Source: Thermoanaerobaculia bacterium (GTDB taxonomy: Bacteria; Acidobacteriota; Thermoanaerobaculia; Gp7-AA8). Taken from it: a DNA stretch of 64,000 nt. The position numbers and the translations under genes are program-made. Location of the stretch: NCBI GenBank assembly GCA_963719365.1, contig OY970380.1, positions 3,005,885 through 3,069,884 of the forward strand. Reading direction: 5' to 3'. The notes under the pieces were generated by a model. The model worked only from the letters and a program-made list of their open reading frames with translations, had not been told where the DNA came from and did no database searches. This document shows positions 27,636 to 30,035 of the stretch, piece by piece (the stretch's first letter is position 1; each line of letters starts with the position of its first letter).

Positions 27636-30035
27636 ATGCGGCGGATCGCCGATGCTCTGCTCCTGGCCGCAATCGTCATCGCCGGCGCCGTGCTGCGCTT
27701 CGGCGGGCTCGCGGCGCCCAGCCTCTGGCTCGACGAGATCCTCGACTTCGATGTGGCCACGAAGCTGTCGCACGAGCCGCTCTGGCGCTGGCTGACCGGA
27801 TTCGACAGCGAGCACGGACCTCTGTTTTTCGCGACGGAGTTGGCGGGCCGCGTGGCGCAAATGCCGGAAATGGCGGCGCGGTTTGCGCCGGCGTTGTTCG
27901 GCGTGGCGGCGATCGTCGTTGCGTGGATTGCGGGACGGGCAGCCGAATCGGGAGTCGGGAGTTGGGAGTCGGGAGTTGGAGTTAACCCGGCTCCCGCTCC
28001 GACCCCCGACCCCCGACTCCCGACAATCGCGATTACGTTCGCGATGCTGCTCGCCGGCTCGCCGCTGGCGATTTATTACAGCCGCGAGGCGCGGCCGTAC
28101 GCATTGCTGATGTTGCTGGCGACGGCGATGCTCGCTCTGCTTTTGCGAGCGGTTGGTGCTCGCGCGAGCCACACGAACAGCCGCGCGACGACAACTCTCA
28201 TCGCGGCGATCCCGATCCTCGCGTTGTTCGCAACCTCGGGCGCGACGCCCTTGCTCATCGCCGCAGCGATCACGGCGTTCGTCGCATTTCTTCTCGATCG
28301 TCGAAGAGGATTCGCCTTCTTTGCCGCCGCGGCGGTCATCGCTTCAGCGGCCGTTCCGCTGCTCTACCGTCGCATGCCCGGCGCGTCTGCTGCTGCCGGA
28401 TTCCGGCCTATCACCTCGCGCTTTTTCATCCGGCTCCTTCAATCGTTCTCCGTCTCCGCGCTCGATGCCACGACCGTTCGTCGCGTCGCATATGTCGTCG
28501 CGGCGCTTGCGCTCATTGGCGCCATCGCGCTGCTGAAACGGGACCGCGTTCGCGGCACGATCGTCATCGGCATGGCGGTGTTGCCGGTGGCGGTCAGCCT
28601 GCTGGCGCTTTGGAAGCTGCGGCACTGGTACTCAGTCCGTTACGTTGCCACCGCGTTACCGGCCTACCTTCTCCTCGCGGCGATCGGGATCAGCGCCATC
28701 CTTCAACTGATCCTGCGACGACGCAGCGCGATCGCCATTCCTTTCGTTGCCGTCCTCGGCGCGGCGCTCATCGTTCGCGAAGGATGGCCCGCCGCACGGA
28801 CGGAGCCGTATCGCAAGCTGAACTGGCGCGTCATCGCCGCGACGATCCACGAGCATGCGCACGCGCGCGACACCGTGCTGACCACGAACGACTGGTCGTA
28901 CGTCTGTCTCGATTTTTATCTCCGCCGCCTGCCGCCGCGCGTGCGGCTTCTCAGCGCCGGCGAATCGTCAACGCGCGCGGCCAGCGTCGCCGCGCACAAC
29001 ACGCCGTTGTGGATTGTCAGCGCCGGTTTTCACCGACCCGGCGACATCGGCGACTGGAGTTGCCAGTTCCCGGTCGTGCTGGCCAGTCCACTCGAATCGT
29101 TCCGCCTGCACTACGCAAGCGGCATCCAGCACCTGCTGCTCAATCGCCTCACGCCCGCGGACACGCGCGCGCTCACCGCCCGCTACCCATCGCACGTCAT
29201 GCACCTCGGCAACGAAAACGCTTTCTTCCTCGGCGGCGGCTGGTACGGTCCCGAAGGCGAGAGCGGCGATCTTTCGCGATGGACGAACGCCGAGCCGGTG
29301 TCGGTGATGCTGATCGCGTCCGCGTCGATCGATCATCGGCTGCTGCTGCGGATGGCGCCGTTCGATTTTCGCGGCGCGCCTCCGCAGGTCGCGACGATCT
29401 CGCTCAATGGCGCGCCGCTCGCGCAGATCACGCTCGCCCGCGACTGGAAGGACTATCCGTTCGATGTGCCTCGCGCGCGCTGGCGCGACGGCGTGAACTT
29501 CCTGACCATTGCCTTCTCGCGCGCGAATGTTCCGGCCTCCGTCGATCCAAACTCGCGCGACATCCGTCCGCTCGCCGGACGATTCAATCTGATTGCAGTG
29601 ATGCCGGCCGGCAGCACCGCGAAACCTGCCGACTCGCGCTCGGAACTGACGCGCGCGTTCCGCATCAACGAGCCGGCTGGCGAGCTGCTCGACGAAAACG
29701 CATGGTGGCGCGGAAGCACGAAGCCGGAGAAGCACCCCAATCGCGCTGGCCTCACCGCGCTCCTGGGCCGGCTCGGCTTCGACCCTCAAGCGACGATTCC
29801 AAAACTCGATCGCGGTGACGTCGATATCGAGGAACTGTCCGAAACGGTGGCGTACGACTCCGGCTGTCTCAACGACAGCGATTTTCTCCATCTCGCCTAC
29901 GCCACCCTCGTCAACCGCCCCATCGACGCAGATGGCGAACGCTATTTCGCGAGCGCACTGACAAAGAAGGAGACGCGCGTGGGAGTCGTTCGCGCGCTAG
30001 TCAATTCGGAGGAGCTGAAGACGACGTTGCGGTAA
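27636..30035 (+). CDS. PMT_2/ArnT-like membrane glycosyltransferase with a C-terminal DUF4214 domain
   Basis: 799 aa. The N-terminus has the GT39/PMT_2-style LWLDE motif and many TM helices. The C-terminal region FLHLAYATLVNRPIDADGERYFASAL...VRALVNSEE is DUF4214-like. The CDS contains an in-frame repeat insertion at 27947-28027. Confidence 0.75.
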   Translation: MRRIADALLLAAIVIAGAVLRFGGLAAPSLWLDEILDFDVATKLSHEPLWRWLTGFDSEHGPLFFATELAGRVAQMPEMAARFAPALFGVAAIVVAWIAGRAAESGVGSWESGVGVNPAPAPTPDPRLPTIAITFAMLLAGSPLAIYYSREARPYALLMLLATAMLALLLRAVGARASHTNSRATTTLIAAIPILALFATSGATPLLIAAAITAFVAFLLDRRRGFAFFAAAAVIASAAVPLLYRRMPGASAAAGFRPITSRFFIRLLQSFSVSALDATTVRRVAYVVAALALIGAIALLKRDRVRGTIVIGMAVLPVAVSLLALWKLRHWYSVRYVATALPAYLLLAAIGISAILQLILRRRSAIAIPFVAVLGAALIVREGWPAARTEPYRKLNWRVIAATIHEHAHARDTVLTTNDWSYVCLDFYLRRLPPRVRLLSAGESSTRAASVAAHNTPLWIVSAGFHRPGDIGDWSCQFPVVLASPLESFRLHYASGIQHLLLNRLTPADTRALTARYPSHVMHLGNENAFFLGGGWYGPEGESGDLSRWTNAEPVSVMLIASASIDHRLLLRMAPFDFRGAPPQVATISLNGAPLAQITLARDWKDYPFDVPRARWRDGVNFLTIAFSRANVPASVDPNSRDIRPLAGRFNLIAVMPAGSTAKPADSRSELTRAFRINEPAGELLDENAWWRGSTKPEKHPNRAGLTALLGRLGFDPQATIPKLDRGDVDIEELSETVAYDSGCLNDSDFLHLAYATLVNRPIDADGERYFASALTKKETRVGVVRALVNSEELKTTLR
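27947..28027. repeat. heptad-periodic palindromic element located in-frame inside a CDS
   Basis: The sequence is atcggg agtcggg agttggg agtcggg agttgga gttaacc cggctcc cgctccg acccccg acccccg actcccg acaat. The delimited span of 81 nt (boundaries fuzzy by a few nt) is translated as ESGVGSWESGVGVNPAPAPTPDPRLPT. Confidence 0.8.

Follow-up and report, generated by a model that had tools for sequence, protein, structure and literature searches.

How does a palindrome built of tandem heptanucleotides come to lie within the reading frame of a conserved membrane enzyme, and what allows it to stay there? The question is raised by an element in a 64,000-nt stretch of the genome of a Thermoanaerobaculia bacterium (contig OY970380.1, positions 3,005,885 to 3,069,884), which we refer to as the window. 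An earlier note had placed the element at 27947-28027, inside the gene of a 799-residue membrane glycosyltransferase (27636-30035, plus strand), and had proposed that the repeat family can invade coding DNA and be tolerated as a loop insertion. The element is a G-rich heptamer-repeat inverted pair, of a class of tandem-unit hairpins that in this genome are usually found just after stop codons. The explanation that we favor, with a probability of roughly 0.65, is the neutral tolerance of a translated, stop-free heptamer hairpin as a disordered loop of the glycosyltransferase. The evidence shows that a copy settled in a short loop between transmembrane helices 2 and 3 in an ancestor of a Thermoanaerobaculia clade and that its inheritance from then on was vertical.

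Sequence and predicted fold of the element

Direct reading of the sequence gives a core hairpin at 27950-28024, which is 75 nt or 25 codons long. Its 5' G-rich arm (27950-27983) consists of four units, GGGAGTC GGGAGTT GGGAGTC GGGAGTT (27950-27977), and a truncated unit GGAGTT (27978-27983), and codes for SGVGSWESGVGV. A 13-nt spacer or loop (27984-27996, AACCCGGCTCCCG) is followed by the 3' C-rich arm (27997-28024), CTCCGAC CCCCGAC CCCCGAC TCCCGAC, which codes for PTPDPRLPT. The tetranucleotide AATC stands on either side of the hairpin, at 27946-27949 and 28025-28028. Tandem Repeats Finder (TRF) reported period-7 arrays at 27948-27976 and 27999-28024 with 90-100% matches, and a repeat finder reported 28-nt inverted arms, 27954-27981 and 27997-28024, that are 86% complementary and 15 nt apart. 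The limits first assigned to the element are indeed fuzzy by a few nucleotides, since the peptide quoted for it, ESGVGSWESGVGVNPAPAPTPDPRLPT, is coded by 27945-28025, an offset of 2 nt.

In silico folding of the RNA segment 27935-28040 gave a minimum free energy (MFE) of −63.3 kcal/mol, compared with −41.1 ± 3.3 for dinucleotide shuffles (z = −6.8), and none of the 200 shuffles folded as well as the native segment. Both the reality of the inverted heptad element and the strong mRNA hairpin expected from it are borne out by these results. A pattern of three GGGNGTY units with up to two mismatches has nine matches at three loci in the window, where 0.02 would be expected by chance. A regular-expression scan also finds a G-quadruplex motif of the form G3N4G3N4G3N4G3 at 27950-27973, on the sense strand and hence in the mRNA; this is one of just three canonical motifs on the plus strand of the window. 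The element would form a stable stem-loop in both DNA and mRNA, or alternatively a sense-strand G-quadruplex, which the ribosome would have to unwind. No Rfam family was matched at the gathering threshold anywhere in the window, and the window contains no second copy with the loop or the flanks of the 27950-28024 element.

Two other identities were considered for the element and set aside. The units contain GAGTC or GACTC, which fit the methylation or restriction motif GANTC, but the sister units GGGTGTC, GGGAGTG, and GGTTGTC lack this motif. An intrinsic (Rho-independent) terminator would need a T tract, and there is none; the element is followed by AATCGCGATTACG and is not listed by the terminator scan.

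The host protein and the encoded loop

The only Pfam domain detected in the host protein is DUF4214, at residues 739-796 near the C-terminus (E = 8e-6). The PMT_2 family (PF13231), to which the protein had also been assigned, gave no match even at E ≤ 10, with or without the 27 residues of the element, although precomputed PF13231 matches exist for the homologues P0012, P0103, and P0105-P0109 (that of P0105 is marked weak). A profile search of the PDB sequences with the host protein returned a chance match only. As these sequence-based searches failed, the protein had to be classified by its fold. An AlphaFold2 model calculated from 53 homologues has a predicted local distance difference test score (pLDDT) of 87 and a predicted template modeling score of 0.85. 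Compared with the PDB by Foldseek, it matched AglB (3waj, 1.5e-7) and ArnT (5ezm, 2.4e-6), and also EmbB, PglB, AftA, ALG12, and Pmt4, with E values overall from 1e-7 to 1e-3. The model places the protein among the GT-C fold glycosyltransferases, which have a multi-pass N-terminal domain with an acidic motif in the first extracytoplasmic loop; W31, D33, and E34 are invariant in the alignment of the 53 homologues. Foldseek also places a CBM35/36-like beta domain after the GT-C domain and before the C-terminal DUF4214. Of the original description, DUF4214 was thus confirmed and the glycosyltransferase assignment holds at the level of the fold, while PMT_2 is not detected by Pfam.

The element peptide occupies codons 104-130, 27 residues, and the reading frame is kept throughout. 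Residues 105-129 were assigned as coil by DSSP on the AlphaFold2 model, between a helix at 77-104 and another at 130-140, in agreement with the Gly/Ser then Pro-rich linker between two helices that had been described from the translation. The mean pLDDT is 51 for residues 111-120 and 55 for residues 121-130, and the peptide is predicted to be a disordered loop. By analogy with the usual topology of GT-C enzymes, residues 104-130 would form the first cytoplasmic loop, and the product of the element would be a flexible linker, Gly/Ser-rich and then Pro-rich, facing the cytoplasm.

Lineage specificity and evolution at the orthologous site

The homologue set comprised more than 100 full-length relatives, all from metagenome-assembled genomes of Thermoanaerobaculia or other Acidobacteriota. 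The number of residues between the two anchor helices is 7-12 in homologues at 37-50% identity (n = 19), 18-33 in the ten closest proteins, and 9-61, with a median of 15, in the group at 64-80% identity (n = 78). In two distant homologues, L039 and L040, the DNA at the site is ordinary non-repetitive sequence. Because the loops of the distant homologues are short and the DNA of these two is free of repeats at the site, the extra residues are a clade-specific insertion, as the earlier note had supposed of the 27 residues. The L039 and L040 loci do carry several intergenic heptad hairpins, with the units AAGGATG, AGGTATG, GTGCTGA, and GAAGAGT.

The site was recovered from 36 genomic and metagenomic loci of the Thermoanaerobaculia clade at 64-100% identity, all of them consensus assemblies. 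Tandem heptads lie exactly at the site in 34 of the 36. Full hairpins, with a G-rich arm, a loop, and a C-rich arm, are present in the window and in L001, L002, L017, L018, L020, L021, and L014/L035, and a partial one in L019. Twelve loci have a G-rich array alone (GGGTGTC, GGTTGTC, or GGCTGTC, coding for GCRVSGVG), about ten have GGGACGA arrays coding for GTRDEGR, which in some orthologues stand beside GGGTGTC arrays, and L022 has a C-rich array alone, whose unit CAACCGA is the complement of GGTTGTC. Among the unit variants at the site are GGGAGTC, GGGTGTC, GGGGGTC, and GGTTGTC, some with a matching C-rich arm. Some orthologues have a REP-like peptide (PPSRRLAWRR..., from repetitive extragenic palindromic, REP, sequences) in this loop. 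The length also varies: L030 has seven units and L026 four, a difference of 21 nt or 7 residues, and L014 and L035 share a 318-nt expansion with three C-rich blocks. In L003 only a decayed remnant is left (AGREIEGRTSSG) and the gene is intact; this and the other orthologues that have lost the repeat, P0011-P0013 (773-776 residues), are single open reading frames (ORFs). At the array, all 36 loci are in frame.

In a neighbor-joining tree of the flanking protein sequence, calculated without support values, hairpins with both arms belong to two subclades close to the midpoint root. Within the subclade of the window the units of the hairpins can be aligned one to one, and the loop of the closest orthologues begins with GGAGTTAA as well; the hairpins of this subclade are therefore orthologous. 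Between the window and L001, identity is 93.8% for the whole gene and 68.8% for the element, and several units differ together at the fourth position, which is A in the window and T in L001. The sequence of the element thus diverges much more quickly than that on either side of it, and the units of an array change partly together. Identical sequence at the site was found in four pairs of loci from different samples (L014 = L035, L026 = L028, L027 = L032, and L015 = L036). As judged from these sequences, the insertion is old, inherited, and evolving in place. The proposal that repeats can invade coding DNA and be tolerated as a loop is supported, with the refinement that this copy is ancient, was inherited vertically, and does not stem from a recent invasion of the genome. 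The rapid turnover proceeds through frame-preserving gain and loss of units, spread of variants along the array, loss or duplication of an arm, and decay.

Several further observations concern the same gene. The gene of L014 and L035 is frameshifted further downstream (around 5845 and 4845, respectively), and that of L008 has a premature stop around 4720. The public calls of the broken orthologues are truncated (P0098, 614 residues; P0097, 507 residues), and these may be pseudogenes. A second variable loop of the glycosyltransferase, at about residues 171-185, contains an octad array, three copies of CTCCGCGT, in many orthologues; in L021 it holds an in-frame hairpin of 8-nt units (3558-3634), and in the window (28140-28200) just a short palindrome (GCTCGCGCGAGC).

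Why heptads can be translated

Since 7 equals 1 modulo 3, each unit shifts the frame by one, and all three frames of a heptad array give one and the same cyclic peptide of seven residues, three units making seven codons. An array of GGGAGTC reads GSRESGV and one of GACTCCC reads DSRLPTP, and neither unit contains TAA, TAG, or TGA in any phase on either strand. With equivalent frames and stop-free units, an insertion need only have a total length that is a multiple of 3. Of the heptad arrays, all 45 that were classed as coding have units that are stop-free on both strands, and 30 of the 56 non-coding arrays contain a stop triplet, the GAATGTT and AATTGAC arrays of the window included. The absence of stops on the sense strand is logically forced inside any ORF; the value of the rule is that it explains which units occur in genes. 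Tolerance of the element follows from a loop that is only 7-12 residues long in repeat-free relatives and is predicted to be disordered, from a peptide that does not depend on frame, and from units without stops.

The periodicity itself belongs to the DNA and not to the protein, because the peptide is not conserved across subclades and because synonymous recoding lowers both the periodicity and the stability. The identity at a lag of 7 nt is 0.64 in the native segment and 0.38 in random synonymous recodings, and the folding energy is −59.2 kcal/mol compared with −43.0 ± 5.2 for the recodings (z = −3.1).

Other copies in coding sequences

Other copies in coding sequence, for which the earlier note had suggested a search, do exist. 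In the window a C-rich half-element, CTCCGAC TCCCGAC ACCCGAC TACCGAA, lies in frame at 10345-10379 (plus strand) in the gene of a multi-pass membrane protein (about 10080-11966), where it codes for KTPTPDTRLPKP between two hydrophobic helices. Its orthologues have PTPDTRHPTP, PTTDNRQPTT (with the unit CAACCGA), or loops of about the same length that contain no repeat.

Related genomes encode, about 2.5 kb upstream of the glycosyltransferase, a HAMP/GGDEF diguanylate cyclase in which one site occurs in four alternative states. It is empty, reading AHAVAGSTAN, at nine loci; it holds a type A hairpin (GGGAGTC/GACNCCC) at six, a type B hairpin (GGGAGTG/CACTCCC) at two, and a GC-rich REP-like palindrome (type C) at three. 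Types A and B have a common loop sequence, CGGCC[T/A]CCGCT, and differ by switches from C-G to G-C or G-U at three of four equivalent stem positions, so that the two arms seem to have changed together after descent from one ancestor. Loci in the four states are interleaved on the neighbor-joining trees of both genes, again without support values, a pattern compatible with turnover, repeated insertion, or recombination. The glycosyltransferase and cyclase hairpins also have a common inner motif, GTCGGAG...CCGCTCCGAC.

An exhaustive HMMER search with the 30-residue native peptide produced one weak match, a spurious ORF over an unrelated repeat; this route fails because of the low complexity of the peptide. 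A search with an idealized repeat peptide found tiny spurious ORFs over perfect arrays only, in cyanobacteria and xanthomonads, and no count of real in-frame insertions could be obtained from it.

The wider class of hairpins in the window and related loci

Seven more long hairpins are present in the window, six made of tandem 7- or 8-nt units, each with a unit of its own, and the seventh of 23-nt repeats. The repeat family suggested for the window is therefore one of shared architecture and not of shared sequence. Six of the seven are directly adjacent to stop codons, and the remaining one separates two divergent genes.

Nearest to the glycosyltransferase gene are a GAATGTT/CATTCAA hairpin (27004-27118), located after the stop of a MarR gene (27138, minus strand) and upstream of a xanthine dehydrogenase gene, and an AATTGAC/GTCAATT hairpin (30054-30146), located between the stop of the glycosyltransferase (30035) and the convergent stop of a SpoIIE-type phosphatase (30156). 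A GAATGTT/AACACTC hairpin (21496-21598) directly follows the stop of an amidohydrolase gene (21608, minus strand). The hairpin between divergent genes, at 37615-37830, is about 216 nt long and has the 8-nt units GGTTGCC(C)/GGCAACC(C); another with 8-nt units, AGTGGATT AGTAGATC ... GATCTACT AATCCACT, is at 63066-63155, downstream of a stop at 62991. A composite element at 7792-7911 consists of a heptad array, GGGGTGT GGGGAGTT GGGCGT GGGGTGT, and then a perfect 22-nt inverted repeat (GAGCAGAGACAAGAGATCAGAG ... CTCTGATCTCTTGTCTCTGCTC); its G-rich array has no C-rich partner, and it abuts the stop of the gene at 7915-8754 (minus strand). The palindrome at 35932-36016, between the convergent stops at 35925 and 36022, has two direct 23-nt repeats (TCGGACTCTCCAGTCCGACAAGA) and then an inverted copy, and its outer arms of 26 nt are 100% complementary. 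There is in addition a tandem array at 59755-59865, with about five copies of a 22-nt unit (GATCTCCCGGTCTTCTGATTCT) at 77% matches.

In 354 kb of sequence from the window and related loci, TRF found 101 arrays of period 7 (about one third of which are the orthologous glycosyltransferase site itself), 48 of period 8, 16 of period 9, and 13 of period 6. Once false pairs of heptads with a downstream 8-nt array had been removed, 14-15 of the 15 unit families (37 inverted pairs) have the G-rich arm on the 5' side and the C-rich arm on the 3' side; the sole exception is an artefactual pairing of two adjacent hairpins. As the elements are palindromic, this orientation holds on either strand, and it matches the convergent arrangement reported for Xanthomonas.

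At the position of the AATTGAC hairpin of the window, behind the glycosyltransferase stop, L005, L006, L007, L009, L023, and L031 have a conserved REP-like palindrome (GGCACAGACAAGAGTGTCTGTGCC), and other relatives have hairpins of 8-9-nt units (CACAGAGA, CACAAAGG). It follows from these unrelated elements that the hairpin behind the gene was exchanged more than once, whereas that inside the gene stayed. The stop-free arms of intergenic hairpins also give ORFs and public gene calls false N-terminal extensions. An example in the window is the N-terminus MLNEVKKKLAGIQHSTFTFNTQHSTFRF of the xanthine dehydrogenase ORF (24596-27085, minus strand), and in L040 (9989-10071) the called start lies inside the GAAGAGT hairpin.

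The genes neighboring the glycosyltransferase in the window are those of purine catabolism, a MarR regulator, a SpoIIE-type phosphatase, and a hybrid histidine kinase. The ten flanking ORFs of the window that were scanned against Pfam include no transposase or RAYT gene. The distant homologue of L039 is encoded inside a gas-vesicle cluster (6893-14874, with GvpL/F, GvpG, GvpA, and GvpK). An ORF starting MPEVLYVYAIGRAGHPLPE directly follows the glycosyltransferase gene in L002, L018-L020, L022, L027, L030, L032, and L036; the window has no such neighborhood.

Comparison with known repeats

The closest known counterparts are the (GGGAATC)n and (GGGANTN)n arrays of Xanthomonas campestris and X. 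axonopodis (Rehm et al. 2015, PLoS One, PMC4692102). Most of these arrays are four units long, 89-93% are intergenic, at a mean distance of 28 nt behind the upstream ORF, and 7-11% overlap ORFs. Convergent inverted pairs able to form a stem-loop number 70 in X. campestris and 75 in X. axonopodis; the repeat length varies between related species while the single or paired type is kept, the arrays carry G-quadruplex motifs, and GGGAATC repeats are described as quadruplex-forming (PMC4692102). Nostoc has related GGGGA(C/T)T repeats, few of them as inverted pairs (PMC4692102). The element in the glycosyltransferase resembles the Xanthomonas type in several ways. GGGAGTC and GGGAGTT fit the GGGANTN consensus (G at positions 1-3, A at 4, and T at 6) in an array of four units; two close convergent arrays could form a stem-loop, with arms of 28 nt at 86% complementarity; a quadruplex motif is present in the array; and the hairpins of the window are mostly intergenic behind stops, with 27950-28024 and 10345-10379 as the intragenic minority. 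It differs in that Xanthomonas has one genome-wide consensus, whereas the units here are specific to the locus (for example GAATGTT, AATTGAC, GGTTGCC(C), and AGTGGATT), with 15 unit families in the 354 kb of the window and related loci. Units of 8-9 nt also occur in the Thermoanaerobaculia genome, the phylum is Acidobacteriota, and the copy studied here lies inside a conserved gene, is translated, and is kept to 64% protein identity, which is not described for Xanthomonas. The GGGAGTC unit is abundant in other phyla as well, since more than 100 tiny 'hypothetical proteins', plainly spurious ORFs, cover (GGGAGTC)n or (GACTCCC)n arrays in Moorena, Spirulina, Xanthomonas oryzae, and Vulcaniibacterium.

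The best-known palindromes inserted in frame into conserved genes are the Rickettsia palindromic elements (RPEs; Ogata et al. 2000, Science). They are described as lying in frame in unrelated coding genes, where their peptide is compatible with fold and function, and as sequences of about 150 bp that form defined families with a conserved encoded peptide (PMC10969869). Enterobacterial repetitive intergenic consensus (ERIC) elements are likewise inserted in frame in conserved genes (PMC10969869). Our element shares with the RPEs a palindromic repeat in frame in a gene, absent from orthologues elsewhere, and recurrence in several genes of the lineage. It is made of 7-nt tandem units and its peptide is not conserved between subclades; it is set apart by the description of the RPEs and not by a comparison of sequences. 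The short tandemly repeated repetitive (STRR) sequences of the cyanobacteria Calothrix and Anabaena, as cited in PMC4692102, are dispersed tandem heptanucleotide arrays; they are alike in their unit, but are described there as direct arrays in the intergenic DNA of filamentous cyanobacteria.

The REP sequences and bacterial interspersed mosaic elements are GTAG- or CGTC-tagged palindromes mobilized by RAYT transposases (PMC3733652). They too are short extragenic palindromes after genes, and the related genomes hold the classical REP-like GGCACAGACAAGAGTGTCTGTGCC at equivalent intergenic positions. We rejected this class for the element in the glycosyltransferase, which starts with AATCGGGAGTC and ends with CCCGACAATC, lacks a GTAG or CGTC tag as well as a sequence conserved in many copies, and has arms of tandem units. 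A miniature inverted-repeat transposable element (MITE) was also rejected: the AATC flank duplication is found in the window copy only, the orthologues have no target-site duplication, and there is no terminal inverted repeat distinct from the arms. In the literature searched, we found no description of such repeats in Thermoanaerobaculia. The element is therefore a known type in a new phylum and setting, a good example and not a new kind.

Discussion

Several observations weigh against simple neutral tolerance of the hairpin. Heptads are kept in 34 of the 36 loci, over divergence that reaches 64% protein identity, a persistence beyond what purely neutral junk would lead one to expect, and the intergenic hairpin after the stop of the glycosyltransferase was in most lineages replaced by unrelated elements. 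The persistence of the one and the replacement of the other leave room for selection on nucleic-acid structure. Covariation is of little help here, as none of the 29 base pairs shows compensatory double changes in the subclade of the window, a result that says nothing either way about selection for pairing. The element may have arrived by transposition or have grown in place; there is no consistent target-site duplication, and the Pfam scan of the ten flanking ORFs detected no transposase. The cytoplasmic location of the loop, finally, was taken from the usual GT-C topology. On balance we infer that the element has no dedicated function, and we found no evidence in support of a regulatory or phase-variation role.

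If selection does act on the nucleic acid, the hairpin or G-quadruplex might be an mRNA cis-element that pauses or attenuates translation after transmembrane helix 2, aiding membrane insertion or tuning the level of the enzyme. The persistence of heptad periodicity while the peptide changes would fit such a role, as would the excess of structure over synonymous recodings, the two-armed hairpins in two separate subclades, and the pairing switches between types A and B in the cyclase. We nevertheless consider it rather unlikely. About two thirds of the orthologues are one-armed and so have no hairpin, and the MFE per nucleotide of the one-armed forms (−0.36 to −0.40) is no more negative than that of the repeat-free L003 (−0.48; the window has −0.59). 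L003 and P0011-P0013 lost the repeat and kept the gene, compensatory changes are missing from the subclade of the window, and slippage alone predicts arrays of perfect repeats. The diversity at these sites could instead reflect a hot spot for repeated, independent insertions of mobile palindromes in the manner of MITE or REP sequences, each variant being a separate invasion. The interleaving of types A, B, and C with the empty allele on both gene trees points this way, together with the REP-like peptide in the loop of some glycosyltransferase orthologues, the GGGACGA arrays beside GGGTGTC arrays in others, and the inner motif common to the two genes. Yet the hairpins of the window's subclade align position by position with a conserved loop start, as orthologous copies would, and the common loop of types A and B points to common descent. 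With no target-site duplication, no terminal inverted repeat distinct from the arms, no transposase among the flanking ORFs scanned, and trees that have no support values and whose interleaving could also come from recombination between strains, a hot spot is an improbable source of the diversity.

Other bacteria are well known to have phase-variable glycosyltransferases whose genes contain repeats, and the element could be a contingency locus of this sort, in which slippage by one unit shifts the frame and switches the enzyme off and on. A repeat unit that is not a multiple of 3, situated early in the coding region of a surface-glycan-type enzyme and differing in copy number between species, is what one would look for. 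We think phase variation very unlikely, as no frameshifted allele at the array was seen in the 36 loci (consensus assemblies), four pairs of loci from different samples are identical at the site, and the arrays, with 3-5 imperfect units, are short for high rates of slippage and have an inverted partner, which sets them apart from contingency loci; the broken genes of L008 and L014/L035 are broken elsewhere. That the ORF is really two genes split by an intergenic hairpin, as the otherwise intergenic position of hairpins of this architecture in the window might suggest, is a reading to which we attach practically no weight. The frame is continuous; the conserved sequence, of which the invariant W31, D33, and E34 form part, runs in it on both sides of the element in more than 100 homologues; orthologues free of the repeat have one undivided ORF; helices of residues 1-104 pack into the one GT-C core of the AlphaFold model; and there is no T-tail terminator. 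Neutral tolerance of the translated hairpin thus remains our preferred explanation.

The most promising leads for further work are that each locus has units of its own, that the 5' position of the G-rich arm is constant, and that the two arms change in concert. A speculative idea, which we consider unlikely as it stands, is that the hairpins are not mobile copies but products of a process, active in these Acidobacteriota and largely sequence-independent, that builds short tandem units symmetrically around a site. It would fit the units peculiar to each locus, the constant 5' G-rich arm, and the arms that change in concert, as GGGAGTC/GACTCCC and GGGAGTG/CACTCCC do at one orthologous site, and break repair or template switching that extends both 3' ends with one G-rich unit could be the process. 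If this were true, the same process acting within genes would give membrane and sensor proteins a source of new loop peptides.

For the annotation of Thermoanaerobaculia genomes, the element type accounts for hypervariable Gly/Ser and Pro-rich loops in proteins and for truncated or spurious gene calls near repeats. For the biology of repeats, it extends the heptamer class of Xanthomonas and cyanobacteria to soil Acidobacteriota and provides loci at which the concerted evolution of one arm with the other can be studied. The rule involved is simple: for a unit that is not a multiple of 3, the frame of insertion is irrelevant, given that the unit contains no stop triplet. The orthologous empty and filled sites show that tandem-heptamer hairpins can become lasting translated parts of conserved proteins over long evolutionary distances.

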